Origin: a virus
Virus record (IMG/VR): IMGVR_UViG_3300045997_000112
Span: 1 to 64,000 of that record
DNA length: 64,000 nt
Reading direction: 5' to 3' (one strand)
Positions 2,136-44,731 of this stretch are shown here, piece after piece. Made by a program: the position numbers and the translations under genes. Under the pieces are notes generated by a model. It did not search any database and was not told where the DNA came from. It saw only the letters and a program-made list of their open reading frames with translations. Each line of letters opens with the position of its first letter. Within the stretch, counting starts at the first letter, position 1.

Positions 2136-2201
2136 GCTCGGAGGTAGTACTCACGCCCACCGCCAACCCAAAAGTCGGTGGGCGTGCAGGTGCATCCGAG
2201 C
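2136..2201 (+). promoter_or_regulatory. extended stem-loop presenting CAACCCAAAAG in its loop
   Basis: CACGCCCACCG (2152-2162) pairs with CGGTGGGCGTG (2176-2186); outer stem GCTCGGA/TCCGAGC. Confidence 0.6.
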
Positions 2202-2258
2202 ACCACGGCAATGTCAGACGGCACTGCCAACATTGAAGTATCACTGAAGGAGAACAGA

Positions 2259-3632
2259 ATGAAGATCACCATCCCCGTCGCCGTCAGCATCCCCAACGGC
2301 GAGGGTCACATGCTCCAGATCGCGCTCACGCCCGAGGGCGTGCTCGGGCGGCTGGACACCGGCGTCAAGGGCCGTGCCAACCGCATCGCGCTGTACGCCG
2401 ACGACCGTGGCCACAAGACCACCGACCTGCCCGAGAACGAGATCCTGCTCATGCGGATCGGCGACGTCGAGATGGACGCGGACATGCTCCGTGCGCTCGT
2501 CGAGCGTGGCTACGCCACCGGTGACGAGGCCAGCATCGTGAACGCGCTCAAGAAGGCGTGGGAGCACGCGCCCATCCGGGTGCAGGACGGCATCAAGACC
2601 CAGGAGTGGATCGGCTCCACCACCACGCCGTCGTGGCCCGTCGAGGCCGCGCCCGTGGTCACCGCACCCGTCGTGCAGGTCACCGAGGCCAGCCCGGTCG
2701 AGGTCATCGCCCCCGTGGGCGAGCTGCCGAACATCGTCATGGACGCTGACACGGCCTCCTCGGCGCTCAAGGTGCACGACAACATGGCGGCCTACAAGGT
2801 GCCCGTCGCCGTCGAGGAGTGGGTGCCGGTCAAGTTCACGGACACCGACATCGACAGCATCGAGTACCTCGAGCGCGCCAAGAACGGCGGCTGGAACATC
2901 GCCATCACCGGCTCGACCGGCTGTGGCAAGTCCGCCCTGTGCTACAACACGGCGGTCAAGTGGGGCACCGCGTACGCGGCCATCCCGTTCTCGGAGGCCA
3001 CGGACACCACCGCGCTCTGGGACGACTCCCTGCTCGTGCCGGACGGCATGGGCGGCACCCGTTCGATGCGCGTGCTCACCGCTGCGGGCATGGTCGCCAA
3101 GTACGGCGGCGTCATGGAGTGGCAGGAGATCAACGGTGCGGCTGACGCCATGCTGACCGCCATCTACGGCGTGCTCGACTTCGGTCGGCAGATCACCCTG
3201 TCCAACGGGTCCACCATCCCGCTGCACAAGGACTGCATCATCATCGCCACCCAGAACCCGGTGGACGCCGCGCACAGCCACGCGTCGCACATGTCCACCG
3301 CGCTCGACCGCCGCTTCTGGCACGTCGAGATGGGCTACATGACCGAGATCGAGGAGAAGCTGGTCCCGGTCAAGGCGCTGCGTGAGATCGCGCAGGAGAT
3401 CCGCCGCTCCGACATCCAGCAGCCCTTCGGCACCGACTCCCTGGTCAAGGTCCACAAGGCCATCCAGGACTTCGGTCTCAAGCAGGGCGTCACCGGCATG
3501 ATCACCATGTTCCGCGACTCGGCTGCCCGAGAGATCGTGCGTCCCATCATTGACGTGCGGCTCACCGAGCTGGGCACCGCCTACAACCAGGAGGTCGAGT
3601 CCGACGTCGAAGAGGCCGACCTTTCTTGGTGA
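2259..3632 (+). CDS. MoxR/CobS-like AAA+ ATPase
   Basis: Walker A GSTGCGKS, variant Walker B VMEWQE, sensor IIATQNP, ALDRRF; GAAGGAG RBS before ATG 2259. Confidence 0.85.
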   Translation: MKITIPVAVSIPNGEGHMLQIALTPEGVLGRLDTGVKGRANRIALYADDRGHKTTDLPENEILLMRIGDVEMDADMLRALVERGYATGDEASIVNALKKAWEHAPIRVQDGIKTQEWIGSTTTPSWPVEAAPVVTAPVVQVTEASPVEVIAPVGELPNIVMDADTASSALKVHDNMAAYKVPVAVEEWVPVKFTDTDIDSIEYLERAKNGGWNIAITGSTGCGKSALCYNTAVKWGTAYAAIPFSEATDTTALWDDSLLVPDGMGGTRSMRVLTAAGMVAKYGGVMEWQEINGAADAMLTAIYGVLDFGRQITLSNGSTIPLHKDCIIIATQNPVDAAHSHASHMSTALDRRFWHVEMGYMTEIEEKLVPVKALREIAQEIRRSDIQQPFGTDSLVKVHKAIQDFGLKQGVTGMITMFRDSAAREIVRPIIDVRLTELGTAYNQEVESDVEEADLSW

Positions 3633-4142: not shown

Positions 4143-6200
4143 ATGATGGATTCCCGTCGCAACGCCGATCACGACATCGATCCGGCGATCGCGGCCCAAG
4201 GCAGAAGCCTCGGCCGCTACAACATCAGCTGGGCGCCCAAGAAGCAGAATGACGAGGCCCTGCGCGCCGTCACCAAGCAATGGGCCCAGGCCCTGGCCAA
4301 GGCGTGGAACGGTGGCCGCCCGGTCACCGTCAAGCACGGCAACGTTGGCGTGGGCGCCAGCACCACCACCGAGGATGACCTCGACATGATCTGGCTCGAC
4401 GACGCAGTGCTGCTGCCCCGTTCGGCCAAGGACCTCGCGGCTGCCGTCGGCATCGTGGTCCATGAGATCGGGCACCTGTTCTACACGCCCAAGCTCAGTG
4501 ACCGCTTCATCCAGGAGATCAACGCCCAGGGGCTGTTCCCGACCTTCAACATGGTCGAGGACGGCAAGCAGGAGATGAAGCTGCTGGCCTACCGGCCGGG
4601 CTTCGAGAAGTACCTGCGCTGGGCCATCCTGCGTCACCTGCTCGCCACCGTGCAGCCACAGACCATCCAGGCCCTGTACCCGGTCATCGCGGGGCGCACG
4701 TACCTCCCGGAGAACCTGAGGGCCAAGGCCCGAATGTTCTGCGCTATGGCATATGGCGACGACGTTGTCGATGAGTTCGACGACCTGCTGCAGGACTTCT
4801 ACGCCATTGACGTGTACGCCAACCCGATGGAGGCGGCCCAGATCATCTCCGACATCAAGAACCTGTTCCCCACTCAGGTGGGCTGCGGTTCGGCTCCCAC
4901 CAATGGGGACACCAAGGAGGACCCCAAGGACTGGAACCCGATCAAGGACCGCAAGAAGAAGTCCAAGAAGAAGGACAAGGACAAGGTCAGCAAGGACAAG
5001 GAGAAGAAGCCCGGGTCCGATGACGATGCCGAGCACGACGACCAGGAGAAGGACGCTGGCGGCGGCGACGAGGACATGGACTGGCTGGACGAGGACTTCG
5101 AGGAGGGTGAGGGCGAGGAGCAGGAGGGCGAGAAGGCCAAGGCCAAGTCCGATGCCGACCTCGACGTCTCCTCCGACTCTGACAGTGACGGTGACGGTGA
5201 CGAGGAGGACGAGAGCTCTGGCGAGTCCGAGGACGCCTCCAACGAGTCGGGTGGCGAGGGCGCTGGTGGTGCCTCCGATGCCCCGCCGCCGGATGCTCAG
5301 GGCGACGGGGGTGCTCCCGAGGAGAACTCCATCGCGCCCGAGGACCTGGGCACGCCCGAGGAGCTGCTGGAGAAGCTCCAGACCATGTCGGACTCGCTGC
5401 AGGACCGCATCGCCCAGGACTACGAGGAGGACTTCGAGCTGATCAAGTCCGAGGCGTTCGGCGATGGCAACATCCGCAAGCCGCTGTGGAACGAGACCGC
5501 CATGCAGCGCAACATGGTGGCGGCTCTCAAGCAGCTGGCCGAGCAGGCCAAGGGCGGGCTCGATCGTCGCCGTCCCAAGGGCAGGCTCAACGTTGGCCGC
5601 TATGCGCGTGGCCGGGACCGCATGGACATCGAGAAGATCGTGTTCGACAAGTTCCGTCCCAATGTTCAGGACGCGCTGGACATGGAGGTCGTCCTGCTCG
5701 TGGACAACTCCGGCTCCATCTACCACGTCCAGAACGAGCTCTCCGGCGTGATGTGGGCGCTGGTCACGGCGCTCGAGTCCGTCGGTGGTCCGGCTGTCAC
5801 CGTGGTGCTGTGGAACAGCAACTTCCAGCTCTGGAAGGTGCCCTCGGAGAAGTGGCGCGCCAAGTACGTGCCCACCATCCAGGCGACCGGTGGCACGTCT
5901 CCGGGTGAGGCCATCAAGTTCGCGGGCAAGCTGTTCAAGAACAGCCGCAAGAAGCAGAAGGTGTGCTTCATCCTCACCGACGGTTGGTGGTCCAACATGC
6001 AGGAGGCCAAGCTGCTGATCGAGGGCATGAAGAAGGCGTCCGACGTGGACACCTACATCCTCGGCTTCGGTGGCTTCGACCCGGCCAACATCAACGACTA
6101 CGGTGCCGTGGACGGCTCCGGGGGTGGCGTGGAGTCCGTGACCGACTTCATCTTCAAGGTGGTCGAGAAGCGCATTCAGCAGAAGATCGCCAACAGCTGA
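4143..6200 (+). CDS. CobT-like vWA domain protein (partner of the AAA+ ATPase)
   Basis: N-terminal HEIGH...FNMVED, long acidic linker, MIDAS elements LLVDNSGS, GGT, LTDG. Confidence 0.87.
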   Translation: MMDSRRNADHDIDPAIAAQGRSLGRYNISWAPKKQNDEALRAVTKQWAQALAKAWNGGRPVTVKHGNVGVGASTTTEDDLDMIWLDDAVLLPRSAKDLAAAVGIVVHEIGHLFYTPKLSDRFIQEINAQGLFPTFNMVEDGKQEMKLLAYRPGFEKYLRWAILRHLLATVQPQTIQALYPVIAGRTYLPENLRAKARMFCAMAYGDDVVDEFDDLLQDFYAIDVYANPMEAAQIISDIKNLFPTQVGCGSAPTNGDTKEDPKDWNPIKDRKKKSKKKDKDKVSKDKEKKPGSDDDAEHDDQEKDAGGGDEDMDWLDEDFEEGEGEEQEGEKAKAKSDADLDVSSDSDSDGDGDEEDESSGESEDASNESGGEGAGGASDAPPPDAQGDGGAPEENSIAPEDLGTPEELLEKLQTMSDSLQDRIAQDYEEDFELIKSEAFGDGNIRKPLWNETAMQRNMVAALKQLAEQAKGGLDRRRPKGRLNVGRYARGRDRMDIEKIVFDKFRPNVQDALDMEVVLLVDNSGSIYHVQNELSGVMWALVTALESVGGPAVTVVLWNSNFQLWKVPSEKWRAKYVPTIQATGGTSPGEAIKFAGKLFKNSRKKQKVCFILTDGWWSNMQEAKLLIEGMKKASDVDTYILGFGGFDPANINDYGAVDGSGGGVESVTDFIFKVVEKRIQQKIANS

Positions 6201-9271: not shown

Positions 9272-9681
9272 TGCAGACGTTCCTGCCCTATGCCGACTTC
9301 GATCTGTCGGCGCAAGCACTCGATCGTCAACGACTGGGCAAGCAGCGGGTGGAGAACCTGCAGATCCTCAAGGCCCTTCTCATCGGTGGAGGCTGGCAGA
9401 ACCACCCCGCCGTCAGGATGTGGCGTGGGTACGAGGGCTCGCTGCTGCAGTACCAGATCCGCATCTGCGCGGAGTGGTCACGGCGTGGCTACGCAGACAC
9501 CTGCTTGGCCAAGTCGTTGCTACTCGCAGACGGACTGTCCTCCCAGGCGCCGCCCTGGTTGGGACGACAGGAGCTCCACCTGTCCCACCAGTCCAACCTG
9601 GTTCGCAAGGACCCACAGCACTACGGACCGATGTTCCCCAATGTCGGTCCTGATCTGGCCTACTACTGGCCCCAACAATGA
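9271..9681 (+). CDS. pyrimidine-dimer DNA glycosylase-like protein (MSMEG_6728 family)
   Basis: MQTFLPY...LD..RLGKQRVE, GWQNHPAV.MW.G, PPWLG, SHQSNL.RKDP, YYWP. Confidence 0.9.
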   Translation: MQTFLPYADFDLSAQALDRQRLGKQRVENLQILKALLIGGGWQNHPAVRMWRGYEGSLLQYQIRICAEWSRRGYADTCLAKSLLLADGLSSQAPPWLGRQELHLSHQSNLVRKDPQHYGPMFPNVGPDLAYYWPQQ

Positions 9682-9693
9682 AGGAGAACTGAA

Positions 9694-9933
9694 GTGGCAA
9701 AGGACGTTTTCATCATCGCGTGGTGCGATGAGCCCGGGTGTCGGGACGAGCACCACGACGAGATGGGCCAGACGGTCCAGACCATCGAGATCTGGGTCAA
9801 CGTCAAGGGCGGTCGCAAGACCCACCCCATCAAGGTGGACATGTGCGCCGAGCACATCGCCCAGTACCGAGGCTGGTTCACCAAGCTGGCCAAGTACGAC
9901 CAGACCAACGACCCGATCGAGGTGGAGAGCTGA
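9694..9933 (+). CDS. Lsr2 dimerisation-domain-like protein
   Basis: MAK-beta strand...TIEIWVN...IKVDMCAEHIAQYR resembles the Lsr2 N-domain; no RGR domain. Confidence 0.45.
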   Translation: MAKDVFIIAWCDEPGCRDEHHDEMGQTVQTIEIWVNVKGGRKTHPIKVDMCAEHIAQYRGWFTKLAKYDQTNDPIEVES

Positions 9934-10199
9934 TGTCAACCCAAAAGCCCACGTACGCCCACGCTGTCGCGTGGCACGCCTACGTCCAGGCCCCCGCGTA
10001 CGCCTCCAAGGCGAGCCTCAAGGAACTGGAGGAGAAGGAGGCCCCTGCGACCGCCCTCTTCGAGATCTGGCGCGAGGACGAGGAGGACGGGAAGGTGCGC
10101 CCCACCGGCCAGTGGTTCGTCTACGAGAAGGTGACCTGCCCGGTGGCCATCAAGTCCATCGAAGACAGGTTCGCGTCTGAAGGTTGGGGCAAGCCATGA
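9933..10199 (+). CDS. hypothetical protein
   Basis: TGATG coupling. Confidence 0.7.
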   Translation: MSTQKPTYAHAVAWHAYVQAPAYASKASLKELEEKEAPATALFEIWREDEEDGKVRPTGQWFVYEKVTCPVAIKSIEDRFASEGWGKP

Positions 10200-10501
10200 G
10201 CACGCAGGAGATCAGCTCCATCAGCCTGGAGTGCCGGGACATGCGCCACGCATGGCGCCGCCTCGGCGACAACATCCTCGTCGAGCGCAAGGGCAAGATT
10301 CGCGTGTTCACCCGAACGTTGGAGTGCCCACGCTGCGAGACCCTCCGCATTGACACGTACCGGATCACGGCCCAGAGCGTGGAGCGTGTGCACAGCCGGT
10401 ACGCCTACCCCAAGGGCTACCACGTCAAGGGCGGCCTCAAGGTTGGGGACGCTCGGTACCTGCTGTTCAAGGACATGACGTTCAAGGAGGAGCTGAAGTG
10501 A
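10196..10501 (+). CDS. Cys/His zinc-binding hypothetical protein
   Basis: CRD.RHAW...CPRC...Y.YP.GY pattern. Confidence 0.75.
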   Translation: MSTQEISSISLECRDMRHAWRRLGDNILVERKGKIRVFTRTLECPRCETLRIDTYRITAQSVERVHSRYAYPKGYHVKGGLKVGDARYLLFKDMTFKEELK

Positions 10502-10740
10502 GTCTCATCTCAGCTCCGGAGCAGCCCTTCGGCCCTGGTGCCCTGTGTGGCAACTGCGGGCACATGGCGATGCGCCACGACGAGAAGGGCTGCCATGGAG
10601 TCGACCCCGCAGTCGGCTGCCGGTTCGGCAGCAGGGGCACCGAGGCCCGTCCGCACAAGTGCTCGGCATTCCTCTGGAACGGGATCCGCTGGCCTCGGCC
10701 GTGGGAGTCCTCTGGCTACGAACAGGAGAAGAAGAAGTGA
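10498..10740 (+). CDS. Cys/His-rich hypothetical protein
   Basis: CGNCGH...H...C...C...C. Confidence 0.7.
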   Translation: MSLISAPEQPFGPGALCGNCGHMAMRHDEKGCHGVDPAVGCRFGSRGTEARPHKCSAFLWNGIRWPRPWESSGYEQEKKK

Positions 10741-10844
10741 ACCTCATCCGAGACATCAAGACGGTGTTCGCGGCCGTCATCTGCATCATCTGGTTCGCCA
10801 TCCTCCCCGAGGATGAGGACGACGATTGGCAGGGGATCACATGA
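10737..10844 (+). CDS. small membrane protein
   Basis: GTGA coupling; one hydrophobic helix. Confidence 0.55.
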   Translation: MNLIRDIKTVFAAVICIIWFAILPEDEDDDWQGIT

Positions 10845-10954
10845 GCAGCCTGCGCTGTCCCTGCTGCGACCACCTGTGGCCGGATCAGGCGACCTATCAG
10901 GACCACCGCGAGTACATGGCCAAGTTCGGCATGTGGCCGGAGGTGGAGGAATGA
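10841..10954 (+). CDS. C2H2-like microprotein
   Basis: ATGA coupling at both ends; CPCC...H. Confidence 0.55.
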   Translation: MSSLRCPCCDHLWPDQATYQDHREYMAKFGMWPEVEE

Positions 10955-11460
10955 CCGACGAAGAGCTCAAGACGTACGTCTACACCGGTGTGGGTGCAGC
11001 CTCCGTCTGCTGGGAGGGTGGCACAGGGTCGGCAGTCTTCCGCGAGGACCTGGCGACCGAGGTGGCCGAGCATCTGCTCAAGGTGATCCGTCGCCACGAG
11101 CAGGACGTCATGGAGGACATCGCCAGGCGCATCCGGAAGATGAAGCCCGGATACCCGCAGACGTGGGACGGCAAGGTCCTGGTCGGTCGATCGATGGCCG
11201 CCAAGGTTGCCCTTGAGGGCTCCTACGTGGAGGACGCCATGGTGGAGAAGCCCGTCGTCGAGGATGAGGGGTGCGGGTGCTGGCTGTGCGTCAACGACCG
11301 CGCCGAGCTGATCGAGGACGTAACCCAGAGGCTCACCTACCGCAGCCGGATGATCGTGTGTGCCCTCTGTGGCAACAAGCGCTGTCCCAAGGCCACCAAC
11401 CATGAGCTGGACTGCACCCTGTCCAATGATCCGGGGCAACCAGGGTCGAGGTTCGCATGA
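10951..11460 (+). CDS. hypothetical protein with C-terminal Cys cluster
   Basis: CGCWLC...MIVCALCGNKRCPKATNHELDCT.SN.PGQPGS. Confidence 0.75.
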   Translation: MTDEELKTYVYTGVGAASVCWEGGTGSAVFREDLATEVAEHLLKVIRRHEQDVMEDIARRIRKMKPGYPQTWDGKVLVGRSMAAKVALEGSYVEDAMVEKPVVEDEGCGCWLCVNDRAELIEDVTQRLTYRSRMIVCALCGNKRCPKATNHELDCTLSNDPGQPGSRFA

Positions 11461-11792
11461 GCCTCCGAGAGAAGTGCATCGAAGTCGGTCGTGAGGCCAT
11501 GGGCCGGAGTTCCAACTGGCGCTGGTGGGCTCCTCGGCACCTGGAGAGGCTGTTCGATCTCTGGGAGCCGATGATCCGCTCCGACGAGCGAGAGCGGCAG
11601 GAGATCGACTTCAATGGCCCAGCCCGCGAGGACATCCGGCGCGCACTCCGCGCCCAGATCGCCGCCGACATTGAGGCGCGCTGCGACAAGCTCTCGCACA
11701 GGGATCGCATCGCGACGCCGCCCGAGTGGCCGGTATGCGCGAAGTGCGTGCCGTACTTCAACATCGCCCAAGGTGAGTCCAGTGGGGACTGA
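11457..11792 (+). CDS. hypothetical protein
   Basis: ATGA coupling. Confidence 0.65.
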   Translation: MSLREKCIEVGREAMGRSSNWRWWAPRHLERLFDLWEPMIRSDERERQEIDFNGPAREDIRRALRAQIAADIEARCDKLSHRDRIATPPEWPVCAKCVPYFNIAQGESSGD

Positions 11793-13904: not shown

Positions 13905-15338
13905 TTACTCGTCGGACGCCGACTGAACCTTCTGCCCGAAGATCTGGCTGAGAACACCGCCCTGAGTCGTTCGGGATGCCTCGATGCGAACGGTCTCCTT
14001 GGACTCCCCCAACTTGGCGAAGACGGCGGCCAGCTTGGCGAACCGATCCATCTCCTTGCCTACGACTGGGTCGTGGTAGCCAGAGGTCTCCTCGGCGAAC
14101 TGGGCGAACATCACCCGGGACGCCTGCATCTCGAGGATCGCTTCCGTGAGGGCGGCCATCTGCTCCCGAGTCCGAATCTGGACTGGCACATGGAACTTGC
14201 ACTGAGCCCCAGGCTGGAACGCTGGGCAGTTGGACGAGAGTGAGCAGGTGTTGCAGGACCTGACTGGAACAGCCGATCGCCGCAGGAGCGGTTGGTCGCT
14301 GATGACCATCCTGCCTTCCTCATCTGGCTGGAAGGACCGCACCACCTCAGTTTGGATGCCCGGCAGACTGGTGCCCGTTATCGGATAAGTGTCATTGGAT
14401 GTAATGGGATAGCGCTCGGGCAGCAATGGGATGACATTTTGGACTTGATCCAGACCCTCACTATCCGAAACCAAGGGAGTGGGTGCGGAAGATCGGGTAG
14501 GAGCCGATTCGTCCGAACTCTCGGATAGTACGTCGAGTATGGAAGAGTAGCCGGACTCCAGCCACCGGAACAGCCGGATGGTGTAGAGCTCGCGCTCGGC
14601 CGCGTTGCCGTCGATCAGCATCTGCAGGTCGCACCCCATGTCCTCGACGAACTTGGCGTGGCGCTTGAGCTGAGCGGCCTGCTCATTCTTGGGCGCACGG
14701 ACGACCCAGTTCCCTCCTGTGGGGACGTAGATATCACTGTGACGAAGAGCGGAGGACCAGGTGGACATGAAGATCGTGTCGAAGAGCTCGTGCCTGACGT
14801 CTCGGTCGAGGCTGAACCCGTGACAGTGGAAGGAAGTCTGGTACTCCCGCTTCAAGATTCCAATGACATTCAATGTCTGCCGGTCTTGAAGGGACGAAAC
14901 TGGTACAACTACATCCGTGTAGGACTCTCCAAGGTACTTCAGGTGGTCCAGGCCGTAGGACGGATTCCACGAGACCCAGAACTTCTCCGCGAACCGATCC
15001 TCGTCGTAGAAGTCCTCCCTCCGCTCGAGGATGTACTCCTTGCCCAAGGTTGGGGCGTCGAACTCGGTGAAGGCGAAGAACTTGCCGTACCACTGATGCA
15101 GGAACTTCTCGTAGCCCTCGGCGCCCGCGATCAGGTCGTCCTGGGTGGCATCCGTGGCCCATGCCGCACTGTCGTACAGGTAGAGCCGGACGTCATCAGG
15201 GAACCGATCGAGGTTGTTCTGAGGCGACTTGACCCGCCGCCGGAAGGAGCTGAGGGACAGGCCCATGTCGCGGACGCCCGCCCCGTAGAGCAGGTCCACA
15301 TCATTGGGAGCCTCAGCGCCCATCCAGATGAACTTCAC
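13905..15338 (-). CDS. putative TGT/DpdA-like TIM-barrel protein with C-terminal four-Cys domain
   Basis: LYLYDS, FTEFD, FHCHGF, STWS echo TGT-like barrel strands; CNTC-x4-C-x8-C followed by a helical region. Confidence 0.5.
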   Translation of the reverse strand: MKFIWMGAEAPNDVDLLYGAGVRDMGLSLSSFRRRVKSPQNNLDRFPDDVRLYLYDSAAWATDATQDDLIAGAEGYEKFLHQWYGKFFAFTEFDAPTLGKEYILERREDFYDEDRFAEKFWVSWNPSYGLDHLKYLGESYTDVVVPVSSLQDRQTLNVIGILKREYQTSFHCHGFSLDRDVRHELFDTIFMSTWSSALRHSDIYVPTGGNWVVRAPKNEQAAQLKRHAKFVEDMGCDLQMLIDGNAAERELYTIRLFRWLESGYSSILDVLSESSDESAPTRSSAPTPLVSDSEGLDQVQNVIPLLPERYPITSNDTYPITGTSLPGIQTEVVRSFQPDEEGRMVISDQPLLRRSAVPVRSCNTCSLSSNCPAFQPGAQCKFHVPVQIRTREQMAALTEAILEMQASRVMFAQFAEETSGYHDPVVGKEMDRFAKLAAVFAKLGESKETVRIEASRTTQGGVLSQIFGQKVQSASDE

Positions 15339-19905: not shown

Positions 19906-20823
19906 CTAACCCTCAACCGTGTTGGCGATCTCCTCGAGCCTCGCCGCCTGAGCTCGCAGCGCCTGAGCCTCGGTGCGGATGGCGGCCGCCGCCAGCGTCG
20001 TATCGGGAACGGTCGGGTGTACTGGCGGCGGGGTCACCGGGGGCGTCACCACCGGCGGGGTCACGACCGGAGGCGGGGTCACGACCTCAGGCGTCCGCTC
20101 CTCGGCCGCGTGGGCGTCGTAGATGCGCTTCAGCTCCGCGTCGGTGAGCACCCGGTTGAAGAACGCCACCCGACGGATGCGCCCCACTAGGAACCCGGTG
20201 CTGTCACCGCGCGTCCCGATGCACACCGGGGTGGAGGTGTTCGCCGGGACCGTCTTGTACGAGGTGAACATGTCCTTGTCCCGCTGGACCCCGTTGCAGT
20301 AGATCGCCGAGTACCCGGGCGTGGGCCCGCTGCCCTTGGTGGTGGCCACTCCACCGATGACCTGCTCGACATGCTCGGCCGCGTGCGGGTCCTGCACGTA
20401 CGACCCGGTGCCCAGGCCGCCGTTGGGCACGAAGTTGTAGAACGAGATGCGCCGCTTGCGCGCCGGGGCCTCGCCACCGCCACCGTCGATGTAGGTCCGG
20501 AACGTCCACTCGTGGGCGTTGGGCCTGCCCTTGCCCATCCAGTGCAGGTACTCGTTGTTGTTGGAGACCCGCTTCCAGTCATCCACCGTCAGGAAGGCGA
20601 TGATGGTCAGCTCCTTGGTGGTGGGCACCGAGAAGTCCGGGCTGTCCGCGAGCTCGATCCACGACCGGCCATCGAAGTGGGCACCGTCGGCAGCGAAGGT
20701 GACGTTGCCGTGGGCCACGCCGTCAATGTTGCCGATCACGTCCCGCGCCCGACCGACATCATCGAGGGGGTAGTAGTGCGTGAGACCCGGAATGGCCTTG
20801 ATGGTGTCCTGGAAGCTGGTCAT
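19906..20823 (-). CDS. LamG/concanavalin-A-like lectin-domain protein with Pro-rich linker and coiled-coil tail
   Basis: YYPLDD, AHFDG, IYCNG, VCIG, GRIRRVAFFNRVLT..E; (VVTPP)n; GGAG RBS before 20823. Confidence 0.8.
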   Translation of the reverse strand: MTSFQDTIKAIPGLTHYYPLDDVGRARDVIGNIDGVAHGNVTFAADGAHFDGRSWIELADSPDFSVPTTKELTIIAFLTVDDWKRVSNNNEYLHWMGKGRPNAHEWTFRTYIDGGGGEAPARKRRISFYNFVPNGGLGTGSYVQDPHAAEHVEQVIGGVATTKGSGPTPGYSAIYCNGVQRDKDMFTSYKTVPANTSTPVCIGTRGDSTGFLVGRIRRVAFFNRVLTDAELKRIYDAHAAEERTPEVVTPPPVVTPPVVTPPVTPPPVHPTVPDTTLAAAAIRTEAQALRAQAARLEEIANTVEG

Positions 20824-20981
20824 GGTGAAGGCTCCTATGGGTGAGTAGAAGAACTGTATCGGCTGGGGTTCGCAGCTGTCCCCGCCGATGTCAGCGCCCC
20901 CACCACCGTGTGTCTCCGGTGATGGGGGCGCCAACGTTGTGAGGATGAGGCCCGCTGCGAGTAGCCAGACCCACCTCAATC

Positions 20982-22055
20982 TCAGAGGCCGTCGGTGGCG
21001 CTGATCAAGGTAACGGTGTTCCCTGCGATGGTGATCTTGGCGGTTGCCGAGTTGTTGTTCTCGTTCGTCTCCTTCCAGAAGTTCTGCCAGTCAGCAGTGA
21101 CCTTCACGGTGTATGTGTCATCAGGAAGGGTGGTGATGTCAATGGCCTGATCCGGAAGCGTTGCCGGGTAGGTGTCCGACCATCCGACCGACAACCCGTG
21201 CATGATGCTCGTCGCGTTCGGGTCCCCGACACCGCAGACGTTGTCGTGGGTGTAGACCGGGTTCAGGGGCGACGCCGGGTAGCTGGGGTTGCCCGGCCAG
21301 TTCCGGTACGAGGTGTTGTCCTCGAAGCAGAACCCATGCTTCTCGCCGTCGCGGAGCTTCTTCCCGTTCTTGTTGTAGATCTCGTAGGCGTCGAAGTCCT
21401 TGATGTGCCAGTGCGTGTGCCCGTCACCCGCGTAGTAGAAGGTGGCCGCAGCTGCCGGAAGCGTCTTCTTGGTGCCGTCCGACATGTACACGACCTGGTT
21501 GGCGACCCAATCCGTCGAGGTGGACGAGGAGCGCTTGCCCAGGATCTCGAGTGGGCCCTTGCCCACGTTGGCGGTCACACCCGGGAACTTGAGCAGCTTC
21601 TTGCCGCCGGTGTTGACGATGGTGAACTGACGCAGGGTGCGGATGCCCGTGTCCGGCAGGAGCTCGGTGGCGCCCGACGGCGGGGGCGGCGGAGTGCCTC
21701 CGATGGTGACGGTGGCGCCCACCTTGGCGTTGGCCTTGAGCCACGTCCTCGACGTGCCATGCCCGGAGAGCACATACCCGTTGGCGGGGATGGCCATGTT
21801 GCCAACGCCATCCTCGGCCTTGGTGATGACACCCCCCACCACAGCGGCCTCGTACCCGTAGATGTTGGTCCCCGTGGTGGCCCCGTAGGCGGGGGTGTAC
21901 TGCACGAAGGCGTTGGTGGACCGGTAGACGTTGACCCCGGTCAGCGCGAGCGTCTGCCCATTGATGGTGACGTCGTTGGCCGCTGCCTGTGCTGGGGCGA
22001 CGGACATCCCCAGAATCACGGCCATGGCAGCGAATAGAACGGATAGCTTCCTCAT
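20982..22055 (-). CDS. secreted lysyl-oxidase-family copper amine oxidase
   Basis: Signal peptide ending AQA; NVGKGP; Cu site HTHWH; GEKHGFCFED (LTQ Lys); GLSVGWSDTY (LTQ Tyr); QAIDIT; ETNENNN. Confidence 0.88.
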   Translation of the reverse strand: MRKLSVLFAAMAVILGMSVAPAQAAANDVTINGQTLALTGVNVYRSTNAFVQYTPAYGATTGTNIYGYEAAVVGGVITKAEDGVGNMAIPANGYVLSGHGTSRTWLKANAKVGATVTIGGTPPPPPSGATELLPDTGIRTLRQFTIVNTGGKKLLKFPGVTANVGKGPLEILGKRSSSTSTDWVANQVVYMSDGTKKTLPAAAATFYYAGDGHTHWHIKDFDAYEIYNKNGKKLRDGEKHGFCFEDNTSYRNWPGNPSYPASPLNPVYTHDNVCGVGDPNATSIMHGLSVGWSDTYPATLPDQAIDITTLPDDTYTVKVTADWQNFWKETNENNNSATAKITIAGNTVTLISATDGL

Positions 22056-23398
22056 GACTCCTCAATCTTCGACATGGATGTGATCTCTTCGACGCTGAAG
22101 TCTGGAGTGTAGCTAGACACTCCAACCTTCTCAGGCTCAGGTGCCCCTGCTCCACGAGTGCCCCAGGACTGGTCCCCAAGGGTGAGGACTGCCTTGTACA
22201 CGGCCACCCGCAGGAGGAACAGACCCCAGAGCGGGTACAGCGTCCCCGCCAGGAACACCTGGAGGATCTTGTTGCCCAAGGACATCGACGGACGGGATGC
22301 GTAGGCAGCCCCCGCCATGCAGAACGAGGTGACGAACCAGAAGGCCACGCCGTACATCAGGGTGGGCTCCCCGAACCTGATCCACACGGTGCTCAACACC
22401 GCCACGGCGAAGGGGAACGCCAGGGCGAACACCAGCGGGTAGCAGTAGAAGAACACCACCAGCGGCCGAAGGTTGGTGACCACGAACGGGGCCCCCAACC
22501 ATGCGGACTTCGACCACCGGGTGCGCTGCTTGAAGATGCCCCGGGGTGTCTCCGGGAGGTGCGTCTCGCACGCCGCCTCGTTGACCGTGACCACCTTGCC
22601 CTTCATCAGGGCGTAGAAGCTCAGGCGCCGGTCATCTCCGATGCTGCCCGAGTTCAGGTAGTCCTCCATGTTGTCGAAGAACACCCAGGGGCGATACACC
22701 GCGATCGCTCCCGAGGTGGGCGTCACGATGGACATGCGGGAGCGGAGCATCCGCATCTGCAAGGTTGAGATCTGCAGGTTGATGTCCGTTAGCCTCGTCA
22801 TGAGGTTGTGCCGCCAGTTGGCGGTGTAGCAGATGGCCGTGGTGGCCATCACCTCCGGATCGTGGAACGCCCGCATCAGGTGCTCGACGGCGTCCAGATC
22901 GAACACCGAGTCCGAGTCCACCGTCACGATCAGGTCGTAGTCATCCTTGGTGAACTGGGCCAGCATCGCCGCCTGCGCGTGCCGCTTGCCCGCGTTCTCC
23001 TGCCGCATCCAGGTGACCAGCGGGTGGTCGAACCCCATGAGCGGGAACTCCGACCCGTCGTCCATGACGTAGATGTGGTCCGGTGGCCGGGTCTGGCGAA
23101 TCAGCGACCACACCACCTCGTGAACCCGCTCCTCGTTCTCCTCGTAGATGGGCACGATCGCCACCACGCGAGCCTCGGGGACCGGGTTGTTCTTGAAGGT
23201 GCGCCACCAGAACCCCGAGATGATGTTGGCCGTGGTGATGCAGGCGAAGAAGGAGAAGAACCCGGCCAGGAACCAGGAGTTCCACCCGATCCACCCACTC
23301 ATCGTCCACACGAAGTAGGTCACGAACAGCCCGAGGAAGAGCAGCGCGACAACCAATGACCACCCGCGAGCGGGCCTGTTCCGTCCGATGTACGTCAC
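22052..23398 (-). CDS. hyaluronan-synthase/NodC-like processive GT2 glycosyltransferase
   Basis: Two N-terminal TMs, DDGS, AGKR.AQ, VTVDSDS, GDDRRL, QRTRWSKS, C-terminal TMs, WGTRG. Confidence 0.88.
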   Translation of the reverse strand: MTYIGRNRPARGWSLVVALLFLGLFVTYFVWTMSGWIGWNSWFLAGFFSFFACITTANIISGFWWRTFKNNPVPEARVVAIVPIYEENEERVHEVVWSLIRQTRPPDHIYVMDDGSEFPLMGFDHPLVTWMRQENAGKRHAQAAMLAQFTKDDYDLIVTVDSDSVFDLDAVEHLMRAFHDPEVMATTAICYTANWRHNLMTRLTDINLQISTLQMRMLRSRMSIVTPTSGAIAVYRPWVFFDNMEDYLNSGSIGDDRRLSFYALMKGKVVTVNEAACETHLPETPRGIFKQRTRWSKSAWLGAPFVVTNLRPLVVFFYCYPLVFALAFPFAVAVLSTVWIRFGEPTLMYGVAFWFVTSFCMAGAAYASRPSMSLGNKILQVFLAGTLYPLWGLFLLRVAVYKAVLTLGDQSWGTRGAGAPEPEKVGVSSYTPDFSVEEITSMSKIEES

Positions 23399-23553
23399 GA
23401 GTTCCCCTTGTACTTGTTGTTGCGGGTCTTGAACCGGTACCCGACGACCACGATGACCGCCGTGAGCACGAACACGGCGATGATGAAGCCCTGACCGATC
23501 TGGATGGGGCCCACGTTGAACGCCCCCCGGGCCACGGGGCAGAACGCCGTCAC
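23395..23553 (-). CDS. small single-pass membrane protein
   Basis: GTGA coupling on both sides; hydrophobic helix followed by basic tail. Confidence 0.6.
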   Translation of the reverse strand: MTAFCPVARGAFNVGPIQIGQGFIIAVFVLTAVIVVVGYRFKTRNNKYKGNS

Positions 23554-24815
23554 AGCTTGTGGACCTTGTCGGCACCCTGCGGGTAGACGTTGCGGGTGTC
23601 CAGGATCTGCTCCGCGTTCTCGTGGATGAGACCCCAATCGAAGACCGCATGGTCCGTGAGCACGATCACCAGATCGAACGACCCGGCGGCCTTGGCGGCA
23701 AGCTCGGCGTCGCTGATCGAGTAGACGTGGGGATCGGACACCGTGACATCCGCACCGGCCTCCCGGAGCAGGCGCACCACCTCCAGCGCCGGGGACTCCC
23801 GGGTGTCGGCAACATTGGGCTTGTAGGCCACCCCGAGGCACAGGATGCGCGCCTGCCACAGCTTGATGTCCCGCTCCGCGAGCAGCGACCTCGATCGGCA
23901 CACGACATGTCCGGGCATCCCGTTGTTGATCTCGTCGGCCAGCTCGGCGAACTTGAACGCCTTGCCGTGATGGTTGCGCCGCATCCAGGTCAGGTACAGC
24001 GGGTCCACCGCGATGCAGTGCCCGCCCACACCTGGTCCCGGCCGGAACCGCATGATGGCGTGGCCCTTGGTGGCCGCCGCGTCGAGGACCTCGTCCACGT
24101 CCAGCCCCAGCTCGGAGCACACCACGGCCATCTCGTTGACCAGGGCGATGTTGACCTGGGCGAACGTGTTCTCGAACACCTTGGCCAGCTCGGCGGCACG
24201 GGGGCTGGAGACCGGGACCACGGTGTCTACCAACGTCGAGTAGAACTCCTGAACCTGAGCCAACGCCTCGTCACCCAGTCCCGACACGATCTTCGGGATG
24301 CGCTGAAAGGTGTTGACCTTGTCCCCTGGGTTGATCCGCTCGGGGCTGTACCCGATCTCGTAGTCCCGCTCCGGACGCATCCCGTTGACGTACCCGATGG
24401 TCTGGACCACGACATCCTCAGTGGTGCCGGGGTAGGTGGTGGACTCCAGCACGATCAGCTCCCCGCCACGCATGTGCTTGGCGATGAAGGAGGCGGCGCT
24501 CTTGATGTAGGTCAGGTCCGGATGCTTGAGCTCATCCACCGGGGTGGGCACCGTGATCAGTGCGATGTCGAATGGCTGGTGGGGCGCCACGAACTCGGTG
24601 TACGCCGTGTCGGTGTACGCCTTGAACCACCCACTGCGCTGCATCTTGGCCAGGCGCTCGTCGGACACGTCCTCGACATAGGACTGCTCGTTGTGCAGGG
24701 CGTCGATCTTGCTCTTGTCCACGTCGACGCCGACGACAACGTGACCGGCCTCAGCCGCTCGGATGGCGATGGGCAGACCGACGTAGCCCATGCCGACGAT
24801 CAGGACGTTACTCAC
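23550..24815 (-). CDS. UDP-N-acetylhexosamine dehydrogenase (WecC/WbpA type)
   Basis: GMGYVGLP, VPTP, ESTTYPGTT, SPERINPG, AE.AKVFENT, PGPGVGGHCI, GVAYK..V.DTRESP. Confidence 0.93.
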   Translation of the reverse strand: MSNVLIVGMGYVGLPIAIRAAEAGHVVVGVDVDKSKIDALHNEQSYVEDVSDERLAKMQRSGWFKAYTDTAYTEFVAPHQPFDIALITVPTPVDELKHPDLTYIKSAASFIAKHMRGGELIVLESTTYPGTTEDVVVQTIGYVNGMRPERDYEIGYSPERINPGDKVNTFQRIPKIVSGLGDEALAQVQEFYSTLVDTVVPVSSPRAAELAKVFENTFAQVNIALVNEMAVVCSELGLDVDEVLDAAATKGHAIMRFRPGPGVGGHCIAVDPLYLTWMRRNHHGKAFKFAELADEINNGMPGHVVCRSRSLLAERDIKLWQARILCLGVAYKPNVADTRESPALEVVRLLREAGADVTVSDPHVYSISDAELAAKAAGSFDLVIVLTDHAVFDWGLIHENAEQILDTRNVYPQGADKVHKL

Positions 24816-24900
24816 TGCGCTTCTCCTCCTTGCCGCAGATGATGCAGAACTGCTGCACACCTTTTCGGCTGAACACCATGCAACCTCGCTTGCACTTCAC
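24808..24900 (-). CDS. 30-aa zinc-ribbon microprotein
   Basis: GTGA coupling; CKRGC...CIIC. Confidence 0.45.
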   Translation of the reverse strand: MKCKRGCMVFSRKGVQQFCIICGKEEKRSE

Positions 24901-25538
24901 TGTTCCTCCAACATGACGAGCTCGATGGGGTTGTCGTAGTCCATGAGCAGGGTGACGATGCTGTCGTTCGTGGTGGCGTGATGCCGCGACCACTCGACCT
25001 TGATCCCCGCTTCCTCGAAGATGGTGGTGTCCCCCATGTATGCCCTGGCTCCGGTTCCGGAGAGGTAGACGTCCATCTGGGGGTAGGCACGGAAGGTGCT
25101 GAGAAGGCCCTCGGCCTTGGTCCCGATGGAGTCCAGACCGAGAGCGAACGGGGTAGTGATACCCAGAAGATCCCGCACGTACACGAGCAGGTCAAGATTG
25201 AACTGCCAGAGGTAGGGGCTCTCGAGGCTCATCGCGTAGTCCACGAGATCCGCCCCGCGCGTCTTGTAGTGGGGCGCCCCGGAGTACCGGCCGTGCATGA
25301 TCTTGGGGAACATCTCCCGGAACTTGGGGATGTCGAGCATGACCTCATTGATGGGCTCGTAGCGGTACTTCTGTGCCAATGGCAGAGTGCACCAGTTGTC
25401 CCGCATCATCACGCGGCGCTGGTAGCCGCGCTCGTGGAGCTGGGCCCGGTAGCGGATGTCCATGATGTCTGCGCGGGCGGTCTTGTACCAGAACCGCGAG
25501 TTGGGCAAGAAGTTCGGCTGATGTCCGGCGACGATCAT
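24897..25538 (-). CDS. WbqC-like protein (putative glycyl transferase)
   Basis: HQPNFLP, Y..APHY, YLSGTGARAY, SIV.LL. Confidence 0.87.
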   Translation of the reverse strand: MIVAGHQPNFLPNSRFWYKTARADIMDIRYRAQLHERGYQRRVMMRDNWCTLPLAQKYRYEPINEVMLDIPKFREMFPKIMHGRYSGAPHYKTRGADLVDYAMSLESPYLWQFNLDLLVYVRDLLGITTPFALGLDSIGTKAEGLLSTFRAYPQMDVYLSGTGARAYMGDTTIFEEAGIKVEWSRHHATTNDSIVTLLMDYDNPIELVMLEEQ

Positions 25539-26155
25539 GAGCGCACCTCACGAACCACGGCGAACTGCTCGGCGAAGGGCAGGTTGCGCCCGGACCCGAT
25601 CCAGCGACCGTGCTCGAATGCCAGCTTGGCGGGATCGAATGACCCGTTGGCCTGGGACTCGTACGCCCGGATGGCGGCCATCTTGGTCTCCATCTGCGCC
25701 TCGGTCAGTCCCTCGAACCGGTTCCACTGGTAGGGGATGGTGTAGAGGTCCGTGGTGTAGCTGGGGATCTCGTACAGCAGGACCGTGGGCACGTACCAGG
25801 CGTCCTTGTTGGTGTAGGACAACCGTGAGGCGCGGATCCCGGCCTCGTAGGCGGCGATGTGGTCCTGATGGGCGCCCGGGGTGGGCAGGTAGATCTCGAC
25901 CGGCTGGAGCGCACTGATGACTGAGTCCAGCCAGGTGACGAGCATCCGGGCGTTGCCCGTGAGCGTTCCGGTTTGGAACTCCGCGAGGTAGGTGCGCTCG
26001 TACCCCAAGATTCCCTTGGCGCGGTAGTACTCCTCCATCCTCCCGTCTCCCTTGTCGGAGAGGATGGCGACGGCGATGTCCTGTGGATCCTTGGCGATGA
26101 GCCCTCCACAGCCGAGAACCTCGTCGTCGGCGTGTGGCGATACGATCAACTTCAT
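25535..26155 (-). CDS. PIG-L/LmbE family N-deacetylase
   Basis: SPHADDEVLGCGG, HQDH, K..AI..Y.SQ, AEQF. Confidence 0.92.
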   Translation of the reverse strand: MKLIVSPHADDEVLGCGGLIAKDPQDIAVAILSDKGDGRMEEYYRAKGILGYERTYLAEFQTGTLTGNARMLVTWLDSVISALQPVEIYLPTPGAHQDHIAAYEAGIRASRLSYTNKDAWYVPTVLLYEIPSYTTDLYTIPYQWNRFEGLTEAQMETKMAAIRAYESQANGSFDPAKLAFEHGRWIGSGRNLPFAEQFAVVREVRS

Positions 26156-26199: not shown

Positions 26200-26466
26200 C
26201 TACCTGACTTCTACATAGAACACGACAGCACTGATGGTGCCGTCGCCGTTGGCGTTGTCCACGTTGGTGAACCCGATCTTGGTCCACAGGTCCTTGCCCC
26301 GTGGGGCGATCAGCCCGCGAGCGATGGCCACGGACTTGGCCGCTTGGCTGACTGCACTGGCTCCGACGGCTCGAACCTCAGCCTCGTCGGCATGGTCCAG
26401 CGACCGGGCGATGCTCCCGGCCACCTCCTTGACGTTGGAATCTCCACGTACCTTGATTAGCTCCAT
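26200..26466 (-). CDS. spoVS: SpoVS-like protein
   Basis: IKV...SN...VAGSIA...RAVGASAVSQAAKSVAIARG...GF..V...ISA. Confidence 0.9.
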   Translation of the reverse strand: MELIKVRGDSNVKEVAGSIARSLDHADEAEVRAVGASAVSQAAKSVAIARGLIAPRGKDLWTKIGFTNVDNANGDGTISAVVFYVEVR

Positions 26467-26471
26467 CACTG

Positions 26472-27047
26472 CTACTCCCTGAACTTCGGATCGGACAACT
26501 TCTCGATCACGGACTTCTCCACTGCGCCTTGTGGTACCCCACGAACGATACGGGCAATCCCGTACGCGTCGATGGCATTGTCGTTGGGGATGTCCACGCC
26601 GTACCTCTTGTACGCCGCCAAGAGCATATGGCTCTTCTGTGAAGACTTCGCGTTCCCGATCACGAACTTCTTCAGGGTGAGGGGCGGAACGATCAGGGGC
26701 TGATGGGCGTGCTCGAACAGGGTCACCTTGACCACCCCGGCGAGCTCTCCCAACACTGAGGCGCTGGCCGAGTGCACGACAGTGCCCTCCATGGCCACGT
26801 CGTCGTAGTTCCACCCCTTCAGCACCAGCTGCAGGTACTGCTTGATCTCGAACAGCCGCTCAGCGCCCCGGGCCTTCGACTGGAGCACCCCGATCTCGTA
26901 GTGGTCGAAGGAGTCCAACGCGCAAACCGCAAACCCGGTCAGAGATTGGTCGATGCCCAGCCAGATGCCCTCCTCATCATTGAGGCCAGCGCCGTCATGG
27001 TTGGTGTACTGCTGCACGACGGGCTTGCTGATGACGCTCACCTTCAT
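26472..27047 (-). CDS. ruvC: RuvC-like Holliday junction resolvase
   Basis: LGIDQSLT, VAMEG, LGELAG, P.TLKKF..G, DNAIDA. Confidence 0.88.
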   Translation of the reverse strand: MKVSVISKPVVQQYTNHDGAGLNDEEGIWLGIDQSLTGFAVCALDSFDHYEIGVLQSKARGAERLFEIKQYLQLVLKGWNYDDVAMEGTVVHSASASVLGELAGVVKVTLFEHAHQPLIVPPLTLKKFVIGNAKSSQKSHMLLAAYKRYGVDIPNDNAIDAYGIARIVRGVPQGAVEKSVIEKLSDPKFRE

Positions 27048-44522: not shown

Positions 44523-44731
44523 TGCTGCTCCCCCATGACCTTGCGGACGACCCGCTCGATGTCGGCGTCAGAAGGCATGGGCCCCACGATCCCTACAGGT
44601 CCGGGAGGGCCCTGTGCCCCCGTGGCGCCCGCCTGCCCGATGAGCCCGACAGGTCCGGTCTTGCCCTTCCAGATCACGTACCCGCTCAGGACGATCAGCC
44701 AGAGCAACATCAGGGCTACCAGCGCGTCCAC
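44519..44731 (-). CDS. membrane-anchored collagen-like microprotein
   Basis: N-terminal TM then ten G-X-Y triplets. Confidence 0.7.
   Translation of the reverse strand: MDALVALMLLWLIVLSGYVIWKGKTGPVGLIGQAGATGAQGPPGPVGIVGPMPSDADIERVVRKVMGEQQ

Follow-up and report, generated by a model that had tools for sequence, protein, structure and literature searches.

A candidate surface-glycan cassette with a lysyl oxidase in a tailed phage, and its chromosomal counterpart in Nocardioidaceae

Chloroviruses encode hyaluronan synthase (HAS) or chitin synthase together with UDP-glucose dehydrogenase and GFAT. In the bacterial synthesis of bacillithiol and mycothiol, once a PIG-L-family deacetylase (BshB or MshB, respectively) has freed the amine of a glucosamine, the ligase BshC or MshC attaches cysteine to it. 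The CslA-GlxA system of Streptomyces (with CslZ/LpmP) sets a GT2 synthase beside a secreted copper oxidase, the two being jointly needed for a surface glycan (PMC11022532, PMC9040799), and another Streptomyces operon places WbqC and lmbE beside a prolyl-tRNA synthetase paralogue (ProRSx), a tRNA, a GT4 and murG (PMC10404621). Bacterial lysyl oxidases (LOX) have been surveyed with their function left open; collagen-like proteins were raised there as candidate substrates and judged unlikely (PMC4448552). Here we describe a cassette that joins elements of these systems in IMG/VR record IMGVR_UViG_3300045997_000112, a soil-type phage genome of 105,425 bp rated 100% complete by CheckV. Its genes run on the minus strand from position 26155 down to 19906 of the window, by which we mean the 64,000 nucleotides analysed, the first 64 kb of the record.

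We judge it probable, though well short of certain, that this is an auxiliary surface-glycan cassette, captured by phages from Nocardioidaceae-type actinobacteria and working as one pathway in the infected cell. The corresponding actinobacterial operon was undescribed until now.

Genes of the cassette

A sequence-only reading of this DNA had listed eight open reading frames (ORFs), from a PIG-L deacetylase to a LamG protein, and all eight are present in the families it assigned (Table 1). Its picture of a run of overlapping stop and start codons holds at four junctions (PIG-L/WbqC, WbqC/zinc ribbon, transmembrane (TM) ORF/GT2 and GT2/LOX), each a 4-base overlap; LamG does not overlap LOX. Gene boundaries were read by eye from the sequence; the longest-ORF coordinates of the dehydrogenase (to 24860) and of GT2 (to 23650) over-extend the real genes. 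Catalytic motifs are intact in all four proteins checked, namely PIG-L, dehydrogenase, GT2 and LOX. Terminator-like sites in a scan of the region did not exceed those in shuffled sequence. In none of the phages and bacteria examined does the cassette have tRNA genes nearby, so the surroundings give no local hint of a tRNA-dependent step.

Table 1. Cassette features and the adjoining upstream gene, in window positions
Feature	Position	Strand	Basis and remarks
SpoVS-domain protein	26200-26814	-	PF04232, E 8e-19, residues 118-201; directly upstream of cassette
PIG-L/LmbE-family de-N-acetylase, 206 aa, no signal peptide	25535-26155	-	PF02585, 46.1 bits (cut-off 28.2)
WbqC-family protein, 213 aa	24897-25538	-	PF08889, 76.2 bits (cut-off 21.3)
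Zinc-ribbon ORF, 30 aa, CX4C...CX2C	24808-24900	-	Read from sequence; GTGA overlap with WbqC stop
NDP-sugar 6-dehydrogenase, probable UDP-HexNAc (WecC/Cap5O/TviB-like) type	23550-24815	-	GTG start behind AGGAGG; three UDPG_MGDP_dh domains
Single-TM ORF, 39 aa	23395-23514	-	GTGA overlap with GT2 start
Processive membrane GT2 synthase (HAS/NodC/chitin-synthase-like), 448 aa	22052-23398	-	GTG start 23398; PF13641, PF13632, PF00535, PF03142
Secreted lysyl oxidase	20982-22055	-	PF01186, 53.7 bits (cut-off 20.4); signal peptide, ~90-aa N-domain, Pro linker, LOX catalytic domain
GC-rich hairpin, 19 bp	20889-20935 (approximate)	-	Inside 158-nt LOX-LamG spacer; possible terminator or stabiliser
LamG/ConA-like lectin-fold protein, 305 aa	19906-20823	-	PF13385; Pro-rich linker, C-terminal amphipathic helix, no signal peptide

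The PIG-L protein has the zinc/metal motifs PHADD and HQDH. It matches the BshB1 and BshB2 models weakly, far below the equivalog cut-off, and is 66% identical to the copy in L003, the cassette locus of a second phage described below, and 41-45% identical to the bacterial copies. Its neighbour WbqC has 1080 homologues among library representatives at E <= 0.001. An AlphaFold2 (AF2) model of WbqC built from 120 diverse homologues reached pLDDT 97.2; an earlier eight-sequence model (pLDDT 61) was dropped. In an exhaustive comparison with about 48,000 PDB representatives the best match of this model was BshC (4wbd; Z 13.3, root-mean-square deviation 3.2 A, 204 of 213 residues), which was also the top Foldseek match. 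Class I lysyl-tRNA synthetase (LysRS) came second (Z 11.2), other class I synthetase cores and nucleotidyltransferases scored about 7.8 or lower, and MshC scored 6.4. Neither the single WbqC sequence nor the 120-sequence profile found any PDB relative by sequence, BshC and MshC included. We predict from the model that WbqC has a BshC or class-I aminoacyl-tRNA-synthetase-like fold and is a putative amino-acid ligase, a likeness of fold and logic that does not establish family membership; the LysRS match is a lead, not evidence for lysine as substrate. Since the modelled fold is closest to BshC and BshB is itself of the PIG-L family, the pair is best read as a mirror of BshB and BshC that would de-N-acetylate an amino sugar and then ligate an amino acid. 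The proposal that PIG-L frees an amine to which WbqC adds an amino acid had been made from the sequence, and the BshC-like model and the Streptomyces WbqC/LmbE operon now lend it independent support.

The dehydrogenase scores 381 bits against TIGR03026 (cut-off 189.8) and has a GxGxxG motif and a GGHCIAVDP motif with the catalytic Cys. Its nearest equivalogs and structures are UDP-ManNAc and UDP-GlcNAc dehydrogenases (PDB 4r16, and Cap5O 3ojl), and it stays below the equivalog cut-offs of WecC (235.8 vs 459 bits) and TviB (204.4 vs 592 bits). We class it as probably of the UDP-N-acetylhexosamine (UDP-HexNAc) type. In the GT2 synthase the motifs DDG, DSD, GDDRRL and QRTRWSKS are invariant in the homologue alignment, and hydrophobic segments lie at both ends. 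Its best NCBIfam match is NodC (TIGR04242), at 83.8 bits well short of the cut-off of 550, and its score against PgaC/IcaA (TIGR03937) is 53.3 bits, below the cut-off of 422.3; by these scores it appears NodC-like, not NodC. A phmmer search of PDB chains, HAS chains included, gave no match at E <= 0.001, no HAS-specific model having been searched, and relatives of the protein carry the JGI automatic name 'hyaluronan synthase'.

Two small ORFs flank the dehydrogenase. A homologous zinc ribbon stands at the same place in L003, and in the bacterial loci the interval from WbqC to the dehydrogenase has none; we regard it as a derived feature, apparently a phage-specific gain of the cassette in these two phages. 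The 39-aa ORF shares the motif IGQxxII-TM-YRxxTRxxxY with the mini-ORF of L003 and with the C-termini of eight bacterial CE4 proteins. In every bacterial CE4 it forms the C-terminal end, immediately ahead of the GT2 start, and the phage TM ORFs are 36-39 aa long. By this motif the ORF is the kept C-terminal membrane anchor of a lost CE4 deacetylase. That the helix is kept in two diverged phages suggests that it is needed, perhaps as a partner of the synthase; the cellulose synthase BcsA requires the C-terminal anchor of BcsB, which may be a comparable case.

The Sec-type leader of the LOX ends in AQA, and the protein has the motifs HTHWH, GEKHGFCFED and DTY. Residues H213, H215, H217, K239 and Y296 are invariant across 12 homologues. 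The His triad and the Lys align with the segment of human LOXL2 (5ze3) that holds the copper ligands and the Lys of the lysine tyrosylquinone (LTQ) cofactor, and what we take to be the LTQ Tyr is assigned from the human LOX sequence. Judged by these residues the protein keeps the predicted copper and LTQ positions plus an export signal and, with its PF01186 match, bears out the earlier claim of a secreted lysyl oxidase. A tblastn search of 50,697 GenBank phage records found no LOX. A single-sequence pattern scan of IMG/VR likewise found none, within a limited sensitivity, since a scan with the GT2 alignment later found a phage (G403, below) with two divergent LOX genes. A LOX 95% identical to that of this phage occurs on an independent metagenome contig.

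The LamG gene placed after LOX by the sequence-only reading is there, although its start is most likely ATG 20823, behind a strong hairpin. The homologues in L003 and G403 begin at the equivalent Met, AGGAG lies upstream, and the protein is 61% identical to the L003 copy. An alternative TTG start at 20979, which would add a hydrophobic leader, was rejected: the relatives start at the internal Met, GC at third codon positions (GC3) is lower in this stretch (0.73), and the stretch itself forms the hairpin. The fold of 20815-20990 has -82 kcal/mol (z = -4.52), and none of 200 shuffles was as stable. With a hairpin in the spacer, LOX probably ends the transcription unit and LamG may be a separate one.

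The N-domain of about 90 aa that precedes the LOX catalytic domain recurs on LamG and CE4 proteins at 43-72% identity. It matches no Pfam family even at E <= 1 and gave no Atlas hit; the PDB yielded nothing for its profile beyond a weak and partial match (E 0.013) to 6ozd, a protein that Burkholderia exports and whose function is unknown.

The same genes in chromosomes and in other phages

Genome searches with the LOX alignment located bacterial loci in Nocardioides rubriscoriae, Aeromicrobium sp. Root472D3, Marmoricola and several metagenome-assembled genomes (MAGs). In loci L005-L011 and L086-L088 the order is PIG-L, WbqC, dehydrogenase, CE4 and GT2, usually with one or two LOX and with one to three secreted LamG. 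Synteny had been proposed as a check on the cassette, and the same order does recur, in no fewer than nine chromosomal loci of Nocardioidaceae type and in three complete phage genomes that are unrelated, while LOX turned out to be variable: in three of the bacterial loci the core and LamG are present and no LOX catalytic domain was seen, some of their contigs being short. In N. rubriscoriae the operon is neighboured by a histidine kinase and two LuxR response regulators (a two-component system), GlmS and an MFS transporter, which mark it as an ordinary chromosomal operon and not a prophage. The operon is rare, a GT2 orthologue being present in 10 of 401 sampled Nocardioidaceae genomes; relatives also occur in Kineococcus and Cryptosporangium. 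Aeromicrobium sp. Root472D3 has, 5 kb downstream of its main operon (L007:15705-20262), a second, diverged set of PIG-L, WbqC, dehydrogenase, CE4 and LamG without GT2 or LOX. One locus, L010 (CALRVO020000019.1), comes from a MAG binned as Sphingomonas paucimobilis; its GT2, dehydrogenase and PIG-L are 86-91% identical to those of N. rubriscoriae, its WbqC and LOX less so, and because it groups with Nocardioidaceae in both trees a binning error is very likely.

Two further phage genomes carry the cassette. G003 is a virus record of 206 kb, rated 99% complete and with a terminase. Its locus L003 has PIG-L, WbqC, zinc ribbon, dehydrogenase, TM ORF, GT2 and LamG at 59-73% identity to those of this phage, there is no LOX anywhere in the genome, and in the 60 kb examined it shares almost nothing else with this phage. 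G403 (IMGVR_UViG_3300043313_001192) is 177 kb long, has direct terminal repeats and is rated 100% complete. Its cassette (L096:4294-17230) comprises PIG-L, WbqC, dehydrogenase, a full CE4, GT2, two LamG, a second CE4 and two LOX whose motifs are intact, the leader being of the Sec type in one and lipoprotein-like in the other. A G403 LamG (9346-10509) and an ORF in the frame of 10239-11489, whose start is uncertain, share a C-terminal helix, '(T/A)DYHAT...KHN..VD.L', which could pass for a shared docking tag. Streptomyces phage Kromp is the one cultured phage with a related GT2 (31% identity), and the other cassette genes are missing from it. At the nucleotide level, megablast with the 19-27 kb region matched no GenBank phage.

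Among the bacterial copies of PIG-L, WbqC, dehydrogenase and GT2 identity is 63-91%; between this phage and G003 it is 59-73%, and from these two phages to bacteria 40-54%. In the GT2 tree this phage, G003 and 17 metagenomic proteins form a long-stemmed clade of 19 members with 100% support, and the G403 synthase falls among bacterial-type sequences. The simplest reading of these separate positions is at least two captures, one leading to G403 and one to the lineage of this phage and G003. Later remodelling within phages appears, from the gene contents, to have included loss of CE4, gain of the zinc ribbon and re-acquisition of LOX. The LOX of this phage nests inside the Nocardioidaceae clade of cluster-linked LOXs and is 62-68% identical to bacterial LOXs, which are 62-74% identical among themselves; from this nesting and bacterial-like identity we conclude that it joined later than the rest of the cassette, acquired separately from a Nocardioidaceae-type donor, at the same position as in bacteria. 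Its sequence affinity further suggests that the host is one of the Nocardioidaceae.

The record is a metagenome assembly without end repeats. It encodes an ATP-dependent DNA ligase, DNA polymerase I, two helicases and a tailspike-like protein, together with tail sheath, baseplate wedge and M23-peptidase tail proteins, and is a genuine myovirus-type tailed phage. Judged by its DNA polymerase, the cultured phages closest to it infect Streptomyces (Alone3 and BRock, for example), at an identity of only about 36%. The sequence-only reading had allowed for a misassembled host fragment. The cassette has a GC content of about 0.64 and a GC3 of 0.84-0.88, like the rest of the phage, against 0.69-0.73 and above 0.9 in the bacterial loci, and its PIG-L, WbqC, dehydrogenase and GT2 are only 40-52% identical to the closest bacterial versions. 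With phage-like composition and bacterial orthologues this distant, the cassette is not misassembled host DNA, nor any other host fragment.

Genes for RuvC and a Cas4-type exonuclease lie just upstream of the cassette. The long SpoVS ORF of Table 1 overlaps the RuvC gene, so the real SpoVS gene is probably only about 90 codons long. Elsewhere in the window, a 477-aa protein (13905-15338, minus strand) has a C-terminal queuine tRNA-ribosyltransferase (DpdA-like) domain (phrog_887, E 5e-25), which suggests 7-deazaguanine modification of the phage DNA. An AAA ATPase at 2178-3632 (plus strand) resembles the CobS ('porphyrin biosynthesis') phage family phrog_249, and is followed at 4143-6200 (plus strand) by a 685-aa protein without a PHROG match at E <= 1e-5; the two are reminiscent of the CobS/CobT-like pairs of large lytic phages.

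Proposed pathway and alternatives

From the gene content, motifs, export signals, folds and co-conservation observed we infer every chemical step of the pathway, including the sugars of the polymer, the added amino acid and the LOX substrate. In the cytoplasm the dehydrogenase would oxidise a UDP-HexNAc to the uronic acid, and the cytoplasmic PIG-L would take an N-acetyl group off a GlcNAc-type unit, whether nucleotide sugar or chain end. WbqC, with ATP, would ligate an amino acid onto the freed amine in the manner of BshB/BshC. The HAS/NodC-like GT2, possibly helped by the 39-aa anchor, would polymerise and export a HexNAc/HexNAc-uronate chain; in bacteria the anchored CE4 would free further amines outside the cell. 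Extracellular LOX would then oxidise primary amines of the polymer or of associated proteins to aldehydes, whose condensation with other amines could harden or anchor the layer, and LamG and the shared N-domain may bind the polymer. The sequence-only reading had proposed an acidic, amine-bearing glycan that is oxidatively cross-linked outside the cell, and the findings support this interpretation in part. The most specific form of this scheme is one we put forward only tentatively: an amino acid, with glycine and lysine as candidates, is ATP-ligated to de-N-acetylated residues of a HexNAc/HexNAc-uronate polymer exported by infected cells and by the few Nocardioidaceae that have the operon, these glycan amines are the native substrate of LOX, and the layer becomes cross-linked. 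The benefit to the phage is probably a remodelled infected-cell surface that blocks further phage adsorption or alters aggregation, and this is the least certain step.

Several observations weigh against a single glycan pathway. This phage has no CE4 catalytic domain, which is present in every bacterial cluster, and so its product may differ from that of the host. Neither the dehydrogenase nor GT2 comes close to the curated cut-off of any named equivalog. LOX is outside the invariant core, being absent from G003 and not found in L086, L087 or L088, loci of which some are short or truncated by a contig end. The bacterial LamG neighbours carry signal peptides and the phage LamG proteins, which end in an amphipathic helix, do not; a phage LamG therefore cannot meet an exported polymer before lysis and would act either after lysis or on the virion. 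A promoter scan of the cassette region found no promoter-like site. The strongest caveat concerns the PIG-L/WbqC pair, which is adjacent in three other IMG/VR contigs (L097:18-2706, L099:6353-10088 and L100:4883-10892), 34-45% identical to that of the window. There it is surrounded by weak GT4-type (Glycos_transf_1) glycosyltransferases and nearby ParB_N-domain proteins, with an RNase T-type exonuclease in L100, and neither a dehydrogenase nor a GT2 synthase was found in the fetched loci (about 8 kb on each side where the contig allows). Phages seem here to put the pair to a second, different use, possibly with DNA or some other acceptor, which means that the pair can serve other pathways.

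The pair's appearance without a synthase in these viral contigs, beside GT4-like and ParB-like genes, would fit an explanation in which the genes are neighbours and not one pathway. GT2 and the dehydrogenase would make a plain acidic polymer; LOX would act on proteins such as secreted LamG or on peptidoglycan amines (diaminopimelate, lysine or a glycine bridge); PIG-L and WbqC would act on a small thiol-like metabolite, virion glycans or DNA. That LOX classically oxidises peptidyl lysine, that it is variably present and was acquired separately, and that BshC, the closest structural relative of WbqC, makes a small thiol all agree with this. We nevertheless think it unlikely, because PIG-L, WbqC, dehydrogenase and GT2 are contiguous, and often overlapping, in every bacterial and phage copy of the cassette seen, Aeromicrobium has duplicated PIG-L, WbqC, dehydrogenase, CE4 and LamG together, and one N-domain on LOX, LamG and CE4 argues for a common extracellular target. 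Somewhat less likely still is a pathway to short, terminally modified chito-oligosaccharides like Nod factors, in which GT2 would make an oligomer, a deacetylase would free its terminal amine, WbqC would (amino)acylate that amine and LOX would give one aldehyde per chain, for a wall tether or a signal. NodC is the best NCBIfam match of the synthase, a NodB-family CE4 adjoins GT2 in the bacterial clusters, PIG-L-family enzymes (MshB, BshB, diacetylchitobiose deacetylase) typically act on terminal or aglycone-linked GlcNAc, and WbqC would by analogy fill the amine-modifying step of NodA. Yet with its 83.8 bits the synthase falls well short of the NodC cut-off of 550, the RWSKS and GDDR motifs as well as the JGI naming lean to HAS-like polymerases, the bacterial CE4, with its signal peptide and C-terminal anchor, is extracytoplasmic, unlike NodB, and a dedicated uronic-acid-forming dehydrogenase together with GlmS suggests a bulk polymer.

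The phage genome holds 16 collagen-like (GXY)n stretches of 8-37 triplets, at 44576-44665 and 79045-94128 and mostly in the fibre region, many of them lysine-rich (GPKGD/GDKGP). LOX could cross-link the phage's own fibres, much as the animal enzyme does with collagen, its place beside glycan genes being inherited from the donor operon, and collagen-like substrates have been raised for bacterial LOX, though judged unlikely (PMC4448552). We consider this very improbable: the Sec signal peptide takes LOX out of the cytoplasm, where virions assemble, no collagen-like repeat occurs in the bacterial LOX loci examined or in the G403 cassette region, and the LOX keeps its host architecture, including the N-domain of the glycan cluster. 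That the cassette is inert cargo or an assembly chimera we find hardly credible. A metagenome assembly without end repeats, with no promoter-like site detected in the region, leaves room for it, but the composition matches the phage, the frames are open with the checked motifs of PIG-L, dehydrogenase, GT2 and LOX intact, three phage genomes, each from a different sample and one of them with direct terminal repeats, carry the cassette, and metagenomes hold both a phage-type GT2 clade of 19 sequences and, on an independent contig, the 95%-identical LOX.

If the most specific form of the scheme is right, it would provide the first LOX known to act on a polysaccharide, the first functional context for a bacterial LOX, the first biochemical role for WbqC and a covalently hardened host coat built by a phage. 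The surface-glycan pathway would extend the chlorovirus style of dressing the host in a new polysaccharide to tailed bacterial phages. For bacterial LOX, an operon shared with a synthase, amine-installing enzymes and lectin-fold proteins gives a first testable hypothesis on its role, in the cultured Aeromicrobium sp. Root472D3 and N. rubriscoriae DSM 23986. WbqC proteins, common in O-antigen and exopolysaccharide clusters and in phages, are an uncharacterised family to which the BshC-like fold gives a testable activity. An enzymatically cross-linkable amino-glycan would also be of interest for materials research.

Comparison with described systems

An amine-installing pair and a lysyl oxidase are combined in none of the chlorovirus, CslA-GlxA and poly-N-acetylglucosamine (PNAG)/Nod systems, and none of these is in a tailed phage. 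As in chloroviruses, a virus encodes a membrane GT2 synthase and a nucleotide-sugar dehydrogenase, here in a record with tail, baseplate and replication genes. The chlorovirus-infected cell extrudes a HexNAc-containing polysaccharide, and the bacterial donor operons of our cassette include GlmS, the equivalent of GFAT. Unlike in chloroviruses, the host is a bacterium, the virus is a tailed phage, the dehydrogenase is of a probable UDP-HexNAc type and not a UDP-glucose dehydrogenase, and the genes form a contiguous host-derived operon; the deacetylase/ligase pair, the lysyl oxidase and the lectin-fold protein are without counterpart in the chlorovirus system.

With CslA-GlxA the cassette shares an actinobacterial processive GT2 and a secreted copper oxidase with a self-generated redox cofactor. 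GlxA is galactose-oxidase-like, has a Tyr-Cys cofactor and acts on alcohols, whereas the oxidase here is a LOX with a predicted LTQ, for primary amines; the CslA-GlxA polymer is a glucan, with no amine-installing enzymes. We know of no phage copy of that system. The likeness to PNAG and Nod synthesis (PgaC/PgaB, IcaA/IcaB, NodC/NodB) lies in a GT2 HexNAc synthase with a CE4 de-N-acetylase that exposes amines on its product, as in the bacterial form of the operon; the phage, in contrast, keeps only the CE4 anchor, and uronic-acid, aminoacylation and oxidation steps are predicted in addition.

The pairs BshB/BshC and MshB/MshC likewise have a PIG-L/LmbE deacetylase followed by a Rossmann enzyme like class-I aminoacyl-tRNA synthetases that adds an amino acid to the glucosamine amine. 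WbqC differs in having 213 aa against the 540-aa chain of BshC, and in its acceptor, presumably a nucleotide sugar or a glycan where theirs is a small thiol precursor. The LOX, for its part, has the copper His triad, the LTQ Lys and Tyr and the secretion of animal and other PF01186 proteins, and belongs to the bacterial LOX radiation; unlike the others it is phage-encoded, is fused to the module of about 90 aa found on the LamG and CE4 proteins of the glycan operon, and is tied to a polysaccharide synthase and not to collagen or elastin.

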